Sequence record: OR880646.1
Strand: one strand, 5' to 3'
Source of the DNA: Escherichia phage ECP2301
DNA: 64,000 nt
A program made the position numbers and the translations under genes. Shown here in pieces: positions 42,486 through 52,165 of this stretch. How positions within the stretch are numbered: the stretch's first letter is position 1; every line of letters begins with the position of its first letter. The notes below the pieces were generated by a model. The model made no database searches. It was not told the DNA's origin and saw nothing but the letters and a program-made list of their open reading frames with translations.

Positions 42486-42950
42486 TTAAAACGCTCGGTC
42501 AGAAAAAGAAATTTGAGTTTCAAGCCATTCAATGTATTCTGCCGCAGCTTGCATCAAATTTCCTTCATAACCATCGTTATTTTCTTGTGCAGCTAATTTA
42601 GCTAATGCATATGAAATGCGTTCACCTTGAAAAGCGGCTTTAGGTTTATGAATAACTTGATCAACTCGTTCTACGACCTCTTCAATTTCGCCATTTTCTA
42701 CTGATTCAGTATTCCACAAGCACCAATACGTAATTGGCTTATCGTAGATGTTAATAACCTTTCCGCCAGAAAGTTCAATTTCAATAATTCCAGTATCAGG
42801 TTCTATATCATCTTCGCATTCTTTTGCAAGTTCACGAACTTTAAAGACAGTACCTGCACTAAGTTCCGGCCAATAATTACACAGCCCTTTATCAGCACGA
42901 TTAATTCTAAACCACTTATCTACTGTAATCATGTCCCATCTCCATATCAA
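42486..42950 (-). CDS. hypothetical protein, 154 aa
   Basis: ORF, ATG start. Confidence 0.45.
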   Translation of the reverse strand: MIWRWDMITVDKWFRINRADKGLCNYWPELSAGTVFKVRELAKECEDDIEPDTGIIEIELSGGKVINIYDKPITYWCLWNTESVENGEIEEVVERVDQVIHKPKAAFQGERISYALAKLAAQENNDGYEGNLMQAAAEYIEWLETQISFSDRAF

Positions 42951-43055: not shown

Positions 43056-43376
43056 TTATAGCGTAATCCATTCTCGTATTGTCTGAGTTACTACACGTTC
43101 ACGGGGCTCGACTAGTTCAACAGTCGGAACTGCATAATACCAGTCAGAATGGTAAGAACCTGAGCGAGATTCATTTACAGACACATGAACGTTATGTTTT
43201 GGACTAAAATAAACACACTGACGATATTGGCATTTACCATCTTGCACCCAGTCTTCTATTTCGATAGGTTTAAGATAATCCGAAAAATCGAAATCATAAT
43301 TTTCTGAAAATGCATCATGGTCTTCGATGATTTCGCTCAGAACTGCATCAACATCTAATTTATTTTCAATAGTCAT
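43056..43376 (-). CDS. hypothetical protein, 106 aa
   Basis: ORF, ATG start. Confidence 0.4.
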   Translation of the reverse strand: MTIENKLDVDAVLSEIIEDHDAFSENYDFDFSDYLKPIEIEDWVQDGKCQYRQCVYFSPKHNVHVSVNESRSGSYHSDWYYAVPTVELVEPRERVVTQTIREWITL

Positions 43377-44036: not shown

Positions 44037-44279
44037 TTATTCCTTAATTCCTAGTACTTGTTTAAAAGTCTCATCGTAATCAAGACTTTGGCCAGTTTGT
44101 TCTTTATGTTTGTATATAATATCACTTACTTCTGATAGCATATTTTTATATGAACGGGTTATAGCAGATTTAAGCACGCTGTATCTATCAGGAAATTTAC
44201 CATGTTCATTATAATACGCTATTGCTAATTCACGGACTGCTTTTTCAGCAGTCTCCATATATTCTTTACGCTTGGTCAT
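44037..44279 (-). CDS. hypothetical protein, 80 aa
   Basis: Start moved to internal ATG, removing overlap with upstream ORF. Confidence 0.4.
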
Positions 44280-44280
44280 T

Positions 44281-44649
44281 TTAATCCAAAATATTATTAG
44301 GCATTGGTTGAACACTCGCAAGTTCTTTAAAGAACTCAGTAGAGTCAGGTAATTTAACCATTTCCGGAGCATGCTTGCTAAATTTGTGTTTACAATGACG
44401 GCATTTATATTCAAGTTCCGGTTTACGCCAGTTAATCAATTGAACCTGTTCAGTACCGCATTCAGGACAATTAGGAACGTTTTTAGAAGCCCTTTCGCGA
44501 CGTTCAACCATAGCCATAATAGCATCCCAGGCTGGAGGTTTAAAATCTAAATCGTCAGTAACTAACAGTCCTTTATCAAACCCAGCGCATGGAGTCCATT
44601 CAGGAAAATCTGAAGCTTCGGCAATATCTTCTAATAGACGCTTTTTCAT
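44281..44649 (-). CDS. zinc-ribbon protein (CPECG...CRHC), 122 aa
   Basis: Four-Cys motif; ATG start. Confidence 0.45.
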
Positions 44650-45575
44650 TTCAATACCTCAATAGCATTACGTAAACCATTTGCTTTTGCATTAAGAGCT
44701 TTTAACAATTTGGTGTGTTCGGCAATCTGGGCTTCAACTTCAATCAAACGAGCATTGAGATATTCACGTTCTTCGCTCAAGTTATCAATCTTTTCTACTT
44801 TAGGCTCTTTTACAACTGTCTTATATGTATTAGGGTTCTTCAGTTTAATTAGAATACGTGAACTGTATAACATTGAACCATTATCTTCGATTTCGTCATA
44901 CATTTCTACTACGTCCATGATTTTTAACATCATGCGGAGTTTATAAGACAACGAACGAATAGTTTTGTTGTGCTTATTAATTTCTTTAGAGTTCATGGTG
45001 CCAAGATTACGTGAGTAATAATAAGGAACCTGGATATTAATTAACACTGATGAACCACCTGGCTTGTGTGTTACTTCATCAGCAATAACCCAATCCTTAA
45101 CATGAACTGTATTTGTACGGTCATCACCAGCAGTAAATAGTTTGCGAGCATGCTTAAAAAGCATATTCACTTGGTCATTGAATTGACAAGCAAATTTATC
45201 AGCAAATTTAGTTTCAGGAATGGTAGATAACCAATCAGCCAAGTGGGTCTTTTTAACATCGTTAACAATAGTAAATTCAACCAAATCGGTTATAGATGTT
45301 GCAGATTTAATGAAGCTCGGCTTCATAAAGTTTTTAATGTTATCGCGAGCTACAGTAGAAGATAACATACGAGAACGTTTAAACCATTCAAGCAAATTGC
45401 CCAATGAATGAGAATAGGCGTTTTGAGTATCTTTACAGATATGATTTTCCTGGCCAACATATTGAAGGAAATCACGAAGAATATTATTGATTACTGCTCT
45501 GTGTCCGATCTGATAATTACGGTGTTTAGTAATAAGACTGTCAAAATAATCAATATAATGTTTACGAGTTTTCAT
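44646..45575 (-). CDS. hypothetical protein with C-terminal coiled coil, paralog family member 1, 309 aa
   Basis: One of four consecutive ORFs with similar size and C-terminal heptad-repeat tail. Confidence 0.5.
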   Translation of the reverse strand: MKTRKHYIDYFDSLITKHRNYQIGHRAVINNILRDFLQYVGQENHICKDTQNAYSHSLGNLLEWFKRSRMLSSTVARDNIKNFMKPSFIKSATSITDLVEFTIVNDVKKTHLADWLSTIPETKFADKFACQFNDQVNMLFKHARKLFTAGDDRTNTVHVKDWVIADEVTHKPGGSSVLINIQVPYYYSRNLGTMNSKEINKHNKTIRSLSYKLRMMLKIMDVVEMYDEIEDNGSMLYSSRILIKLKNPNTYKTVVKEPKVEKIDNLSEEREYLNARLIEVEAQIAEHTKLLKALNAKANGLRNAIEVLK

Positions 45576-45627
45576 GTTCTTCTCACTTGGTTAATGATTT
45601 ATACTCCGAGCCATCCTTGGCTTTAAA

Positions 45628-46629
45628 TTACTTAATTAACTGTAAAGCTTGTTCAAGACGATCCAGGCGATTAACAGATTCTTCCCAAATCCTTTTAGCC
45701 TGCTCATATTCTTTCTGCGCTTTATTAGAAATTTCTAGAACTTCTTTATAAGCTTTTTCTAGTGCAATAACTTCTGGACGAATTTCTACCGGTTCAGGTG
45801 AATCGTCAAGACATTCCATTAGTTCCTCAAGGGTAGTTTCTTCTTTAGGAGTATTCACAATTTCTTCACATTTTTGTTGGTAAATTTCTTTATCAGTCGG
45901 TGAGTACGCACATTTCACTTCACGAAGGCTAATTATAATTTTATATCCTTCCCAACCACACATATTTTTGAAAGGATATGTATGAATACTTTTTACAGTT
46001 TCCATACAGCCCAAAGCCGCCTCTAATTGATAAGTTATAGTGCTAGCAATTGAGAAAAATTTATTAATATTCTTTTGGTTAGCGTTTGGTGTAAAAAATC
46101 CATAATTCACAAAAATAGCTACTTTATTTTTATCAAGCTCATATTCTTTTACGATAATCATATCAGAAGCCAAAGGATGAATTTGACGATAATCGCCATA
46201 ACATAATTTAGAAGCGGATTTTAGAAGTTGCTTCTTGAAAAGTCTGAAATTACTAATCCAACGACGAGTAAAAATATTCTCAGGGTCTTCTTTATTATTA
46301 AGATGATAAGAATTAACATCACCGAACCAATTATATCCTACTACATCTTTAGTTCGTTTAATTTCTTTCCCAAATTTACTAAGAATATCTCTGTTGACTA
46401 AGTATGAAAGAAGACGAGAACCTTTAAAGGTTTCCTTAATATCATCTTTATATTCGCAACTAGAAATTTTATGAACTTCATGAATAAATTTGCCGGAAGA
46501 AACAATACTTGCATCAGTATTGTTGAGCCACTGATTGATAATAGAAAGAACACTATTCTGACTAGACATAGATTTAACTTTATCATCAATAACGCTATTG
46601 AATGATTTGATATATTCGTTACGAGTCAT
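45628..46629 (-). CDS. hypothetical protein with C-terminal coiled coil, paralog family member 2, about 333 aa
   Basis: Start moved to ATG downstream of the early promoter, GGAGA SD. Confidence 0.5.
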   Translation of the reverse strand: MTRNEYIKSFNSVIDDKVKSMSSQNSVLSIINQWLNNTDASIVSSGKFIHEVHKISSCEYKDDIKETFKGSRLLSYLVNRDILSKFGKEIKRTKDVVGYNWFGDVNSYHLNNKEDPENIFTRRWISNFRLFKKQLLKSASKLCYGDYRQIHPLASDMIIVKEYELDKNKVAIFVNYGFFTPNANQKNINKFFSIASTITYQLEAALGCMETVKSIHTYPFKNMCGWEGYKIIISLREVKCAYSPTDKEIYQQKCEEIVNTPKEETTLEELMECLDDSPEPVEIRPEVIALEKAYKEVLEISNKAQKEYEQAKRIWEESVNRLDRLEQALQLIK

Positions 46630-46657
46630 ATTAATCTCCTCAGTAGAAAGTAAGAAC

Positions 46658-46687
46658 ATTATACCACATCCTTGTGGCGAAGTAAAC
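46658..46687 (-). promoter_or_regulatory. early promoter, near-identical copy of the rIIA.1 promoter
   Basis: CATTATACCACATCCTTGTGGCGAAGTAAACTAG vs AATTATACCACATCCTTGTGGTAAAGTAAACTA at 2427..2460. Confidence 0.6.
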
Positions 46688-47706
46688 TAGTTTAGTGCAT
46701 TTAGTGCATTGTTCAGTTTAGAACGTTGCTTCGTGAGATTTTTGACTTTTTCTTGAGCTTTTTCTAGCATCTTTTCAGCTTCTAACACTTCATTAGTTGC
46801 TTTAACGAGTTCATCATCTACTGCCTTGATAGACTTCTCAATCGCATCCGCGTGCCATTTTTCAACAGGTTTAAGACTCGGATTTTCAACAGGAAGAAAA
46901 TTCACTTTATTGAATTTCCATGCATCCTTATTACCTGAACTATACATCCAAAATTTAGGATCGTTTGATGAGTAATTGGATAAATTTAAAATATCTTGCA
47001 CTTCCTGCTTTTTCTCTTGCGGGATTTCGTCCTTTCTCAAAAAATCGTATTTAAATGAAACGATCATATCAAGTTCATATGTTGTTGTGTCTAATTTAAA
47101 TCGCTCAAAACGAGGTAAAATCTTAGACTGAACAGCGGCAACAACATCCATATACTTAAATGCTTCTGTCAACTGCGATTTAAGGCATTCGCAAATTGAA
47201 AGAGAATTTTTTGTATTAGGTTTAAAGCTAATTCGTGCAGTTCTGTTATTTTCTTTTAATGGTCTTACTTCCATCTGAAGAGTATAACCATCAAATTTCA
47301 GGTTCTTTAAGTTAATGTCAGAACCTTTTAATCGACTAGCCGTCGACAAAATTTGCTTTAATTGCTTACGGAATAGAGCAATAAATCTCCATTCAATACG
47401 ATAATGATTTGGATTGAAAAATCCAGATGATAAATCGACCTTACTCTGACCAACGCCTTGAACAAATAGAGGATTTTTATAATCAATAGTTTTACAGAAA
47501 TCGGTGAGTTGCTCACGAGCAGTCATTTGTGTAATATACCCCGCTTTACTAAAATGACGTAACCATTCACTGCTATTCATATATTTAAAGTGAATATCAC
47601 GATTAACTTTATCAGGGTCTAAATTATTTTGGCACAAAAATGTCATAACATCACGAGTATAGCTGGCATTACGAACCATATCTTCAATTTGAGAACGAGT
47701 TTTCAT
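46687..47706 (-). CDS. hypothetical protein with C-terminal coiled coil, paralog family member 3, 339 aa
   Basis: ORF, ATG start. Confidence 0.5.
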   Translation of the reverse strand: MKTRSQIEDMVRNASYTRDVMTFLCQNNLDPDKVNRDIHFKYMNSSEWLRHFSKAGYITQMTAREQLTDFCKTIDYKNPLFVQGVGQSKVDLSSGFFNPNHYRIEWRFIALFRKQLKQILSTASRLKGSDINLKNLKFDGYTLQMEVRPLKENNRTARISFKPNTKNSLSICECLKSQLTEAFKYMDVVAAVQSKILPRFERFKLDTTTYELDMIVSFKYDFLRKDEIPQEKKQEVQDILNLSNYSSNDPKFWMYSSGNKDAWKFNKVNFLPVENPSLKPVEKWHADAIEKSIKAVDDELVKATNEVLEAEKMLEKAQEKVKNLTKQRSKLNNALNALN

Positions 47707-47714
47707 GGTGTTCC

Positions 47715-48605
47715 TTAAGATTTAAGTAAATCGACAATTTTAATTAACTTTTCACGCTCAGATTTAGCTTTACTACTCAGTCCAGATAGTCTGAAAATTT
47801 CATCATCATATTGTTGAATAGAAATATTCAGCTCTTCAATCTGTTTATTAAAATAATCAATTTGTTCAGAATGTTTTTCGTTACTACGAACTGGTACAGG
47901 TTTCGTAGGCAATGTAGTTGAACTGGATTCATCCGGGCGATAAATTAAAATACAACTTGAACCAATAGGGCATTTTGCACCAGATGAATATTCTAATGTT
48001 CCAGCTTCTTTTAAAACTTCAAAAGCTAAACAGAGATGATGCCCCATATTGACATAATCTGTAGAGCGAGCTCTGATATAATAATCATCGCCACGAATAC
48101 TAAATTTAAAGCATTTAAGGTCTTCTGTATTATTGGTCTTAAAAATCATTTGTTTATCTAGACCTTTAGCTAATCGAGCGCCTAATGCTAATAATCGTCT
48201 TTGATTTTCCCACAAATCCGCAATCATTTGATCGAATGATAATTTTGGCATCAGTCGACCGTAAAGGTCATATCCTTTATTATAATTACGAAGGATTTCA
48301 CTCGCATTAATACGAGATAATGCTCCAATTTTATTAAGGGCTTTCATAATGCGATTAGATAAACTCATTCCAGATCCGTTTGTTCGCTGCAAATGTTTTT
48401 CTAATCCAAATCCAATATCAACTTTAAACTTATCTAAAATTTCTGCATGAACATCTCTGTCGATAACATTCAAATCCAAAGTTGAGTTAAATCTATGAAA
48501 AAATTTATCTGGCTCTGCACTGCGAAATACAGTCCATTCATTCATCATTTTTTTATTAACTAAAGATTTAATTACTGCATTGACATTATTAATTACTACT
48601 GACAT
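47715..48605 (-). CDS. hypothetical protein with C-terminal coiled coil, paralog family member 4, about 296 aa
   Basis: Track start is TTG; moved to ATG with GAGGAAAA SD. Confidence 0.5.
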   Translation of the reverse strand: MSVVINNVNAVIKSLVNKKMMNEWTVFRSAEPDKFFHRFNSTLDLNVIDRDVHAEILDKFKVDIGFGLEKHLQRTNGSGMSLSNRIMKALNKIGALSRINASEILRNYNKGYDLYGRLMPKLSFDQMIADLWENQRRLLALGARLAKGLDKQMIFKTNNTEDLKCFKFSIRGDDYYIRARSTDYVNMGHHLCLAFEVLKEAGTLEYSSGAKCPIGSSCILIYRPDESSSTTLPTKPVPVRSNEKHSEQIDYFNKQIEELNISIQQYDDEIFRLSGLSSKAKSEREKLIKIVDLLKS

Positions 48606-49075: not shown

Positions 49076-49603
49076 TTATGCGAGTACCGTCTTTAACCGT
49101 TCTTCAAACTTCCGAAGAGTATTTTGGCGTTCAGCTCTTTGCTTTTTGTAAGTTTCAATACGCTCTGAAATGAGAGTGTATCGTTCATTTACTGATTCTT
49201 TCATAAAATCAGGAATTTCACGAGAAGCTTTAATCTCGTCAAATTTATCAATAACAGCTTGCTCTTCAGCAATTAAGTTATCATACATTAAAATATCTTT
49301 CTTGATGAACTCAATATCTTCTTGAGTTACACGAGATAATTTAGATGCTTTATCCTTTTTGTACTGTTCATTAGTATCACGAGACCAGTGTAATGTACGA
49401 TTTTTATTCGTATTCTTGTAAATTTCTACAATACCGATCTCATCAATAATAACGATCCAATTCCAACGGGATTTGTAAATTTGTCCTCCATCAACAGTGA
49501 TTTCACCTCCGATTGAGATGTCATTAAAGAACTTGCTTTGTGCTTCAGATTTAAATTTACCATCGTTGTAATTTACCAAGTTGAAAATATCTTTAGCGTT
49601 CAT
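49076..49603 (-). CDS. hypothetical protein, 175 aa
   Basis: ATG with GGAGGA SD and repeated early-promoter cassette upstream. Confidence 0.5.
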   Translation of the reverse strand: MNAKDIFNLVNYNDGKFKSEAQSKFFNDISIGGEITVDGGQIYKSRWNWIVIIDEIGIVEIYKNTNKNRTLHWSRDTNEQYKKDKASKLSRVTQEDIEFIKKDILMYDNLIAEEQAVIDKFDEIKASREIPDFMKESVNERYTLISERIETYKKQRAERQNTLRKFEERLKTVLA

Positions 49604-50067: not shown

Positions 50068-51036
50068 TTATTTCAGAAGAGTAACCTCAGCGATTTCTTC
50101 CCAACCGTTTTTGTCGGTCATAATAAAGTCAGCAAGATAAAGAGCAGTACGCAGTGAAACATTGCGTAAACGATTAACATTAACTTTCATCCATGATAAT
50201 GCTTTATAAGTTTCTTCATCAGAAAGACCGCGCTTTTGCATCATGTCAGTTGAAAGAATAACATCTTCAACTCTGACCATAATTTCTTCATTAGTGTGAA
50301 CACCCAGATCTAAATAAACCGAGCGGGACACTAATGCTTGTAAATGTGGAGCAAGTTTAGTACCACGGTCTAATTCGCGGTCAATGTCAACGTTTGTGAT
50401 AAAAACAATCGTTCCTTTAAATTCAAACTCACGCTCAATGCCTTTTTCTTCTAAGTAAGAAGACGCAGTGCTCCAGCAGACTTTACGGGTCTCTCCAGTG
50501 TCCAGAGCGGCTTTTAGAAGATTAAGAATGTCCATATCAGAGAAAACATCCACATCATCAATCAAAAGGACAGAATTCTCTTCACGATTATTCCAAAGCT
50601 GCTCATAAAGACCAATACCAGAGATTTTACCATTAATGCTTTTATATTCAATGTATCCAATATCATTTGCTTTATTTAAAGCTTTATCTAAAGAATACGT
50701 TTTACCAATACCTGCTGCGCCAGAGATAATCAATGAACGAATATTTCCATTAATAATACCATTCGTCATCATTCCCATAACATTAAATCTTTTATTAATG
50801 CGGGTTTTCATATCTTCATATGATTCTTTAACTTCTTCAACTTTTACACCATCATATGAAATATCTGATTTGTAAACCCAAACACCGCGACGCTTACCGT
50901 CAATTTCAACAAAAACTTTACCATCTCCTTGTGCATCTACCGGAGCATTATCTGGGAACCATTCGCCTAAGAGTTCAAAAGTTCCAGAGATTTCTTTACC
51001 GAAGTAGATACCCTTATTGATAGTTACAGTTTTCAT
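50068..51036 (-). CDS. P-loop NTPase (Walker A GAAGIGKT, Walker B LLIDDVD), 322 aa
   Basis: Track ORF extended through promoter; ATG at 51036 with GGAGA SD. Confidence 0.55.
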   Translation of the reverse strand: MKTVTINKGIYFGKEISGTFELLGEWFPDNAPVDAQGDGKVFVEIDGKRRGVWVYKSDISYDGVKVEEVKESYEDMKTRINKRFNVMGMMTNGIINGNIRSLIISGAAGIGKTYSLDKALNKANDIGYIEYKSINGKISGIGLYEQLWNNREENSVLLIDDVDVFSDMDILNLLKAALDTGETRKVCWSTASSYLEEKGIEREFEFKGTIVFITNVDIDRELDRGTKLAPHLQALVSRSVYLDLGVHTNEEIMVRVEDVILSTDMMQKRGLSDEETYKALSWMKVNVNRLRNVSLRTALYLADFIMTDKNGWEEIAEVTLLK

Positions 51037-51070
51037 TTTATTCTCCAAATCCGTATCAGTTGATAGTTGT

Positions 51071-51100
51071 ATAGTACCATAAAGCTTTATGCTTGTAAAC
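51071..51100 (-). promoter_or_regulatory. early promoter within repeated cassette (GTTTAC / TACTAT) with A/T-rich UP-like tract
   Basis: Third copy of the 21-mer; aaaaattttttcacaaaac upstream of -35. Confidence 0.5.
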
Positions 51101-51123
51101 CGTTTTGTGAAAAAATTTTTGAA

Positions 51124-51150
51124 ATAAAAAAGGGAGCCCGAAGGCTCCCT
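51124..51150 (-). terminator. intrinsic terminator (7-bp stem, UUCG loop, U6) followed by an early promoter
   Basis: GGGAGCC-UUCG-GGCUCCC then U tract. Confidence 0.6.
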
Positions 51151-51151
51151 A

Positions 51152-52165
51152 TCATTTATAATAACTTCGATGGTTTTCAAGATAAACCCTCTCAAGGAAG
51201 TCATCCCAGAAACCCATGTCTACTTTTTGCTGCATACCGTTCTTAGAAGCTTCAATGGATGCTGCTTCTACTTGATCGACCACATCTTCCAAAAACTCTT
51301 GAACAGTTTTAAATGGATGTTTACCCAACTTCACGTCAAGAATAAATGGAGCGTCTTGAAGTGGATAGACTAAGTCACCAGTTTTGTAAATTTCCAATAG
51401 TTGGAGTCCACCACGGCAAGCATGACTCAGAGCTTTCCAGTCAATGCCCTCATTCGCTTCAGCCTTACGAGCACGTTCGCCGTATTCAGCATCAAGTTTA
51501 TTCAAAGACTGCTTAAGCTCAATAAGAGAAAGCGTTGTTTGATATTTACGACCCAGCACAGTGTAGAACGTTTGTGGACCTGTTTTCTCATGATTATGGA
51601 ATACCCATTCACAGAATTCGTTCTCTGGAAGACGATGCTTAATATCTTCAACTTTAGTTCGACGCTGCTTAATGGAACCGTCTTCTTGGTAATCAACCCA
51701 TTGCTCAGGGATTTGATTAACTACTTTCAATACATCACGTAATGCGGCCAAACGAGAACCCTTGACGCCGTATTTAGAAGCTTGCTTGCGAACATATCCT
51801 AAATAGGATTTCATGTTAGTCGTATAAAAACGAGAACGGTTGTCTTGAATAAACTTCCATACATCAGGCAAATCAGATTTAACTACCAGTTCAGGTGGAG
51901 TGTGGAGCATATCCAATGCTACAGTTTCACCATCTGCTGCTAATTTAAAGAAATACTTAAGACTGTATAGTTCATGGTCAATATCATCTTTAGTGTTTTT
52001 AGATGATGTGTTGTTAGTGTTTTTACTCATATGCTCTTTAACATTTCCTATAAGAATATCACGAGCAGGAGGAACAAAGATTTCTTTAAAATCTACATCA
52101 GATTCTGGAGTAGAAGTTCCATAAAGATGACTACCAAAATAGCTTTTCATTACTGTTTTCATCAT
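51152..52165 (-). CDS. predicted nucleotidyltransferase-fold protein (GS...DVD motif), 337 aa
   Basis: N-terminal FGSHLYGTSTPESDVDF resembles Pol-beta-superfamily NTase signature; terminator after stop. Confidence 0.45.
   Translation of the reverse strand: MMKTVMKSYFGSHLYGTSTPESDVDFKEIFVPPARDILIGNVKEHMSKNTNNTSSKNTKDDIDHELYSLKYFFKLAADGETVALDMLHTPPELVVKSDLPDVWKFIQDNRSRFYTTNMKSYLGYVRKQASKYGVKGSRLAALRDVLKVVNQIPEQWVDYQEDGSIKQRRTKVEDIKHRLPENEFCEWVFHNHEKTGPQTFYTVLGRKYQTTLSLIELKQSLNKLDAEYGERARKAEANEGIDWKALSHACRGGLQLLEIYKTGDLVYPLQDAPFILDVKLGKHPFKTVQEFLEDVVDQVEAASIEASKNGMQQKVDMGFWDDFLERVYLENHRSYYK

Follow-up and report, generated by a model that had tools for sequence, protein, structure and literature searches.

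Four consecutive open reading frames (ORFs) at positions 44646–48605 of Escherichia phage ECP2301 DNA (record OR880646.1; the whole stretch analysed, 64,000 nt, is referred to here as the window) correspond to the T4 genes nrdC.3, nrdC.4, nrdC.5 and nrdC.6. As judged from sequence profiles and predicted structures, these are tandem paralogs derived from one ancestral gene, and they form one small superfamily found in T4-like phages alone. Three long-standing T4 genes, nrdC.3, nrdC.4 and nrdC.6, thereby gain a link, in ancestry and in architecture, to the counter-defence gene nrdC.5, and because nrdC.5 counteracts Dsr1, its three paralogs are good anti-immunity candidates. The reading favoured here, with a probability of roughly 0.6, is that all four act as early, stoichiometric, non-catalytic inhibitors of host defence whose specificity differs from paralog to paralog. 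The T4 ORFs were already annotated and the role of nrdC.5 was already known. In the literature searched, no description was found of nrdC.3–nrdC.6 as one superfamily with the anti-Dsr1 protein, nor of their common architecture or of the increase from one copy to four.

A 5.1 kb stretch of the locus shares 98.2 % identity with Escherichia phage A6-6 and has matches in 743 phage records; by sequence, the source phage is a Tequatrovirus (T4-like coliphage). In gene order relative to the T4 reference record, the ORFs occupy the nrdC.3, nrdC.4, nrdC.5 and nrdC.6 positions, all on the minus strand, downstream of nrdC, nrdC.1 and nrdC.2 and upstream of nrdC.7–nrdC.11. They are consecutive and tightly packed. 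The initial annotation had singled out four successive ORFs downstream of nrdC, and its limits and placement were exact. The genes are as follows.

44646–45575, minus strand: nrdC.3, 309 aa; family A; phrog_1435 (E 7e-117); closest paralog nrdC.4.
45628–46629, minus strand: nrdC.4, 333 aa; family B; phrog_1435 (E 1.5e-164); precomputed Pfam label PF26897.
46687–47706, minus strand: nrdC.5, 339 aa; family C; Pfam DUF7235 (PF23882); phrog_2351.
47715–48605, minus strand: nrdC.6, 296 aa; family D; phrog_2257 (E 1.2e-151); precomputed Pfam label PF26899.

NrdC.5 is 94 % identical to its T4 ortholog over 98 % of its length and matches PF23882 over its full length (414 bits, E 4.6e-124; gathering score 30 bits). 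nrdC.3 is confined to Tequatrovirus loci and is hypervariable, and nrdC.6 is the most divergent of the four paralogs.

Homologues were gathered for nrdC.5, nrdC.6 and nrdC.4, nrdC.3 members were taken from the retrieved loci, and the family profiles (A, nrdC.3; B, nrdC.4; C, nrdC.5; D, nrdC.6) were then compared. Pairwise BLASTP proved insufficient as a test of paralogy: only nrdC.3 and nrdC.4 gave a significant match (26 % identity across 226 residues, E 4e-9), the remaining five of the six pairs being non-significant at E values of at least 0.04. The PHROGs classification agrees, with nrdC.3 and nrdC.4 together in phrog_1435 and nrdC.5 and nrdC.6 each in a family of its own. Profile–profile comparison with hhalign linked A to B with a probability of 98 % (E 1e-13) and B to C with a probability of 72 % (E 3.5e-5, 234 colinear columns); the other comparisons gave E values of 8.5e-4 (A–D), 5.7e-3 (C–D), 0.018 (A–C) and 0.097 (B–D). 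Merging the profiles at full length gave E 1.1e-6 for AB versus C, 2.6e-11 for AB versus CD and 3.8e-8 for ABC versus D (probability 95 %, 258 columns). After removal of the last 55 residues the corresponding values were 2.7e-6, 7.2e-9 and 9.7e-5, the tail-less link to nrdC.6 being the weakest among the merged comparisons. Reversed targets reached E values of at least 0.011, and the best of 20 column shuffles gave 9e-4 for D and 0.04 for C. Since similarity persists without the tails while the controls stay weak, the link among the families is not a coiled-coil artefact, and the outcome under which the initial annotation would have fallen, no similarity beyond the coiled coil, is contradicted. 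The paralogy it proposed, to be checked by all-against-all alignment, is thus recovered for nrdC.3 and nrdC.4 by BLASTP and for all four by merged profiles, the five other BLASTP pairs remaining silent.

Bridging sequences and independently predicted folds argue for the same relationship. The protein P0233, of Klebsiella phage F48 type, matches the family hidden Markov models (HMMs) of A (1.6e-4), B (5e-8) and C (1e-9), and P0236 matches those of C (6e-7) and D (7e-16). The relation of nrdC.3, nrdC.4 and nrdC.6 to DUF7235 is seen only by profile–profile comparison and by fold; in HMMER searches the DUF7235 model had no match to these three at E ≤ 1, and of the 29 proteins aligned for the superfamily it matches only 4. 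When 1.84 billion cluster representatives were searched exhaustively with HMMER using the superfamily profile, just 27 proteins, P0233 and P0236 among them, came back at E ≤ 0.001, so the superfamily is tiny. Every matched cluster that carries a name comes from T4-like phages.

AlphaFold models of nrdC.4 and nrdC.6 were each made from that protein's own separate family alignment, and the two predictions are therefore independent of each other. Mean predicted local distance difference test (pLDDT) scores were 84.3 for nrdC.4 and 78.2 for nrdC.6. Both models run in the same order through N-terminal helices, short strands, a helix–helix–turn (motif M2, below), a hairpin, a long helix (motif M3), a second hairpin, a low-confidence linker and a single helix of 48–50 residues, and are predicted to have the same fold. 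In Foldseek searches of BFVD, the nrdC.4 model matched NrdC.3 of phage fPS-65 (E 5.6e-8) and NrdC.6 of phage JS10 (E 2.2e-5, probability 1.00), so that structure prediction recovers matches between the families. Additionally, the nrdC.4 and nrdC.6 models match the same 8 uncharacterised proteins of 300–370 aa, which belong to T4-like phages of Pectobacterium, Enterobacter, Acinetobacter, Erwinia, Yersinia and Serratia. Template modelling (TM) scores are modest, at 0.2–0.5, as is expected where a long helix is attached via a flexible linker. A sequence search of the PDB found no related chain.

The C-terminal coiled coils described at the outset are present in every member. Over the last 49 residues of each protein the heptad a and d positions are 86–93 % hydrophobic, against 17–29 % at the other positions, the heptads are uninterrupted, and the pattern is significant against shuffled sequences (p ≤ 0.003 for all four). 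Counted from the C-terminus, the heptad register is identical in all four proteins. In the AlphaFold models the tails of nrdC.4 and nrdC.6 each form one helix. The positions of the tails are listed below.

44649–44795, minus strand: nrdC.3 C-terminal heptad helix, residues 261–309; heptad test p = 0.003.
45631–45777, minus strand: nrdC.4 C-terminal heptad helix, residues 285–333; p = 0.0005; AlphaFold helix 285–332.
46690–46836, minus strand: nrdC.5 C-terminal heptad helix, residues 291–339; 0 of 2000 shuffles reached the observed value.
47718–47870, minus strand: nrdC.6 C-terminal heptad helix, residues 246–296; p = 0.0005; AlphaFold helix 246–295.

The joint alignment contains three motifs outside the tail, M1, M2 and M3, together with a conserved C-terminal tip, colinear in all four proteins. 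M1 reads [FL]-x-[KR]-x-x-x-[LI]-[ST]-x-x-x-[AN]-[RS]-[DE]-x-[LI]-x-[NDK]-[FY]; M2, which is the common internal motif of the initial annotation, ends LLxxAxRLxxGD; M3 reads LxxA[FL]xx[ML][DE]xV and the tip LxxA[LI]xxLK. From the alignments, M2 is placed as follows.

46189–46260, minus strand: M2 in nrdC.4, WISNFRLFKKQLLKSASKLCYGDY.
45120–45194, minus strand: M2 equivalent in nrdC.3.
47314–47385, minus strand: M2 equivalent in nrdC.5.
48153–48224, minus strand: M2 equivalent in nrdC.6.

The order of parts shared by the four is an N-terminal helical region with M1, a central alpha/beta domain (a helix pair with M2, a beta hairpin, a long helix with M3 and a further beta hairpin), a disordered linker that is acidic or rich in proline, and the amphipathic heptad helix of about 49 residues. 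The superfamily alignment has zero invariant columns, its near-invariant positions are one leucine and one alanine only, and no polar residue is conserved across it, which makes an enzyme unlikely. Scans of Pfam, NCBIfam and PADLOC matched neither the four proteins nor superfamily members to any catalytic family. Within the nrdC.6 family, blocks of invariant polar residues specific to it persist at identities as low as 45 %, NKGYDLYGR and NQRRLLALGARL being examples.

The functional reading starts from NrdC.5. Srikant, Guegler & Laub (2022, eLife; PMC9391042) described a T4 deletion clone that fails on strain ECOR17 owing to dsr1, and plating of the deletion phage on MG1655 carrying dsr1 was regained when nrdC.5 was supplied in trans; the same study classes nrdC.5 as an early gene, and the predicted early promoter inside the array (below) points the same way. 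According to a 2026 preprint (PMC12803255), the major capsid protein triggers Dsr1 via a tetratricopeptide repeat (TPR) sensor that is common to Avs7 and many effectors. The mechanism envisaged is that nrdC.3–nrdC.6 would be transcribed early in infection and that their products would inhibit immunity proteins of the host stoichiometrically and without catalysis, every paralog having a specificity of its own. NrdC.5 would neutralise the SIR2 NADase Dsr1, and the products of nrdC.3, nrdC.4 and nrdC.6 would neutralise other defence proteins, or else divergent Dsr1-like or Avs7-like sensors. Target recognition may be carried by the variable globular part, with the conserved coiled-coil tail serving in oligomerisation or in contact with a common partner. 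Direct binding, non-catalysis, the role of the tail and the anti-defence role of nrdC.3, nrdC.4 and nrdC.6 are what we infer from the ancestry and architecture shared with NrdC.5.

The surrounding genes are of a similar kind. gp49.2 inhibits OLD (PMC13096335), and a further preprint (10.1101/2025.11.20.689424) reports that nrdC.1 inhibits Septu and that bas37_0203 inhibits Druantia III. Bas37 is phage KarlGJung, and bas37_0203 is its 175-aa gene at the nrdC.8 position. In the window, the gp49.2 ortholog is at 43056–43376 (minus strand), the nrdC.1 ortholog at 44037–44279 (minus strand) and pin, which encodes a Lon inhibitor, at 42486–42950. nrdC.8 itself (49076–49603, minus strand; 175 aa), at the position of bas37_0203, has a weakly heptad-like tail (p = 0.02) and no detectable homology to the four paralogs. 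Because gp49.2, nrdC.1, the gene at the nrdC.8 position and pin are inhibitors, the block from gene 49 to nrdC.8 looks like an anti-defence island, and the four paralogs lie at its centre.

Copy number and sequence of the family vary among T4-like phages. Searching the window's ORFs of 80 aa or longer, nrdC.8 included, with the family HMMs returned the four genes and no fifth member. Tequatrovirus loci carry an array in the order D-C-B-A, with four copies in most; one lineage (L006 and L007) has a divergent D′-C′-A′ array that lacks B. Nine loci from other T-even phages of E. coli have three copies, D-C-B without A, and nrdC.3 thus appears to be a duplicate of nrdC.4 peculiar to Tequatrovirus. 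A single copy at the syntenic position is found in Marfavirus F48 and Kanagawavirus IME523 (L024:7001–7948 in Klebsiella phage F48; L025:6737–7744 in Enterobacter phage IME523). The F48 protein is recognised by the HMMs of families B and C, and P0233, a close relative, also by that of family A; the F48 protein looks like an intermediate form, possibly of ancestral type. The genes of 256–257 aa upstream of the single-copy members in F48 and IME523 were unmatched by the family HMMs. Within the phage collection, records carrying a gene of the window type number 653 for A, 553 for B, 584 for C and 741 for D.

Three allele classes of nrdC.3 are apparent by tblastn, at approximately ≥90, 76 and 61 % identity. 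T4 carries the 61 % allele, its flanking genes being 94–100 % identical. Gene-wide ratios of non-synonymous to synonymous substitution (dN/dS), computed among eight Tequatrovirus genomes, are 0.30 for nrdC.3, 0.21 for nrdC.4, 0.18 for nrdC.5 and 0.10 for nrdC.6, against 0.01–0.06 for gp49, nrdC, nrdC.1, nrdC.8, nrdC.9 and nrdC.10; the ratio is also raised in pin (0.12) and nrdC.7. The paralogs thus evolve faster than these neighbours. Structural rearrangements also occur. In P0056, from a 167-kb contig, nrdC.5 and nrdC.3 are fused in frame at the junction KFNKVN|MLFKHARKLF, with nrdC.4 deleted; nrdC.6 of Shigella phage Sf25 (P0058) has an 82-residue internal tandem duplication and reaches 378 aa; and in some phages nrdC.4 occurs as two separate ORFs (L004:6916–7948; T2 record PV648363).

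The initial annotation suggested diversification against a variable target. This is plausible on indirect grounds, namely the anti-Dsr1 activity of NrdC.5, the inhibitor neighbours, the faster evolution, the alleles and the range of one to four copies; dN/dS below 1 counts on the other side. Members facing variants of one target or four different targets are both compatible with the data. If the targets are distinct, the array would represent widening of phage host range through duplication and retuning of one inhibitor scaffold.

Several observations weigh against a family of defence inhibitors with separate specificities. A phenotype is on record for just one of the four genes, and its product, NrdC.5, may target the SIR2 domain or the sensor, or work indirectly. 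The tail-less link of family D (E 9.7e-5) is only about ten times better than the best shuffled control (9e-4). nrdC.7, which is not a member of the family, likewise stands at a dN/dS of 0.28, and nrdC.6 is fairly conserved inside Tequatrovirus, at 93–98 % identity. Because gene-wide dN/dS is below 1, relaxed constraint fits the rates equally well as positive selection. Lastly, in the passages of its preprint (10.1101/2025.11.20.689424) picked out by term search, the HIDEN-SEQ screen of T4 and Bas37 reports nrdC.1 and bas37_0203 and none of nrdC.3–nrdC.6, a weak negative.

Relaxed constraint leads to the alternative that survives best, although it is still unlikely: that the genes are remnants of old duplications among which only nrdC.5 is functional, the others drifting as accessory ORFs. 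The raised dN/dS, the frequent losses, splits and fusions and the lack of a reported phenotype for nrdC.3, nrdC.4 and nrdC.6 would all suit such remnants. However, full-length ORFs are maintained in hundreds of genomes (553–741 records), dN/dS values of 0.1–0.3 still denote purifying selection, and the invariant polar blocks of nrdC.6 persist at 45 % identity.

Slightly less probable again is that the four proteins assemble into one hetero-oligomeric early complex with a single joint function, joined through their conserved C-terminal helices, for example as a four-helix coiled coil. Tails alike in length, heptad register and conserved tip would be expected of such subunits, as would the D-C-B order kept across genera and the tight packing of the genes on one strand. 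Yet nrdC.5 alone on a plasmid was enough for plating on dsr1 cells (the phage may have kept other nrdC genes), related genera have a single copy, nrdC.4 is absent or broken in many Tequatrovirus genomes, and nrdC.3 alleles exchange independently of the other three genes.

A more specific and rather doubtful version of the inhibitor proposal has each paralog plugging a different pattern-recognition sensor (Dsr1, or TPR sensors of Avs7 or Avs type), such that the increase from one copy to four in T-even phages of E. coli would track the diversification of sensors in that host. Sensors of Avs7 and Avs type recognise capsid, tail terminator and other structural folds, according to the 2026 preprint; what Dsr1 reportedly senses, however, is the capsid protein and not the terminator, which counts against a decoy idea inspired by comparison with tail terminators.

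That the four genes are unrelated, their similarity being merely compositional or due to coiled coils, is very improbable: the non-significance of five of the six BLASTP pairs would allow it, but the homology without tails (AB versus C, AB versus CD) at E values that reversed and shuffled controls fail to reach, three colinear motifs outside the tail, the bridging sequences and the matching independently predicted folds speak against it. A redox or nucleotide-metabolism function can be dismissed: nrdC.1–nrdC.11 are labelled ‘thioredoxin’ in many phage records, but the label appears to have been propagated from the gene name only, the CxxC motif is absent from all four sequences, no thioredoxin or glutaredoxin match is found in Pfam or NCBIfam, and the predicted fold is unrelated, so that sequence and predicted fold correct a widespread annotation of nrdC.3–nrdC.6.

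Some weak identities were tried and rejected. An integrase-like N-terminus in nrdC.3 (SAM-like, as in tyrosine recombinases; Pfam E 0.057, NCBIfam E 0.0017) was seen in 1 of 29 members and judged a chance match. Hits to PHL, DUF3905, Cas6b_C, BrxC, SEC10/PgrA and, in the PDB, designed helical repeats fell below family cut-offs and were inconsistent among members.

A purine-rich, Shine–Dalgarno-like run lies 5–8 nt 5′ of each of the four ATGs. Alternative longer ORFs are listed for nrdC.4 (343 aa from ATG 46659) and nrdC.6 (303 aa from TTG 48626), and on sequence both longer versions are unlikely. The 333-aa form is the likely nrdC.4 product because ATG 46659 falls within the −10 box of a predicted early promoter in the gap between nrdC.5 and nrdC.4.

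46658–46686, minus strand: predicted T4-early-type promoter; GTTTACT, 17 nt, TG-TATAAT.

The match, from a consensus scan of the sequence alone, covers 10 of 12 consensus positions (46686–46658) plus the extended −10 TG.

Among the neighbours, nrdC.2 (44281–44649, minus strand) encodes a 122-aa zinc-ribbon protein with two CxxC pairs, and the gene begins in overlap with the stop of nrdC.3. No other gene in the block varies as much as nrdC.2, which shows 45–99 % identity among Tequatrovirus loci. The nrdC.10 ORF (50068–51204, minus strand) is listed at 378 aa and contains the P-loop GAAGIGKT; the annotated coding sequence is shorter, at 978 nt in the T4 record and 969 nt in the KMB39 record, and since the listed ORF exceeds both, the genuine start codon probably lies within it. 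The 5′ extension of the listed ORF contains, at 51131–51150, a strong G+C-rich hairpin with a T run that resembles a minus-strand terminator.

With respect to known systems, identity between the four-gene family and tail terminator or completion proteins (lambda gpU, T5 p142, SPP1 gp17-like proteins and the pyocin collar) is only 3–14 %. Unlike tail terminators, which are late virion components encoded in the tail module, nrdC.3–nrdC.6 have added N-terminal and coiled-coil modules and are located in the early, non-structural block from gene 49 to nrdC.11, with an early-type promoter. The inhibitors gp49.2, nrdC.1 and nrdC.8/bas37_0203 resemble the four in lying within this early, non-essential and variable block and in being lineage-specific; they are small proteins without a known domain (80–175 aa), far smaller than the four and non-homologous to them. 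DSAD1, from an SPbeta-type phage, is reported to inhibit DSR2, a SIR2-domain NADase defence, and does so non-enzymatically (PMC10973363, PMC11087589). The parallel with NrdC.5 is one of functional analogy only, with a different host, a different phage lineage and DSR2 rather than Dsr1 as the target. As for T4 NrdC.5, the anti-Dsr1 phenotype is its own, neither this nor any other phenotype being reported for nrdC.3, nrdC.4 and nrdC.6; at 13–23 % alignment identity these three are its remote homologs, and they have the same architecture, the same motifs and the same coiled-coil tail.

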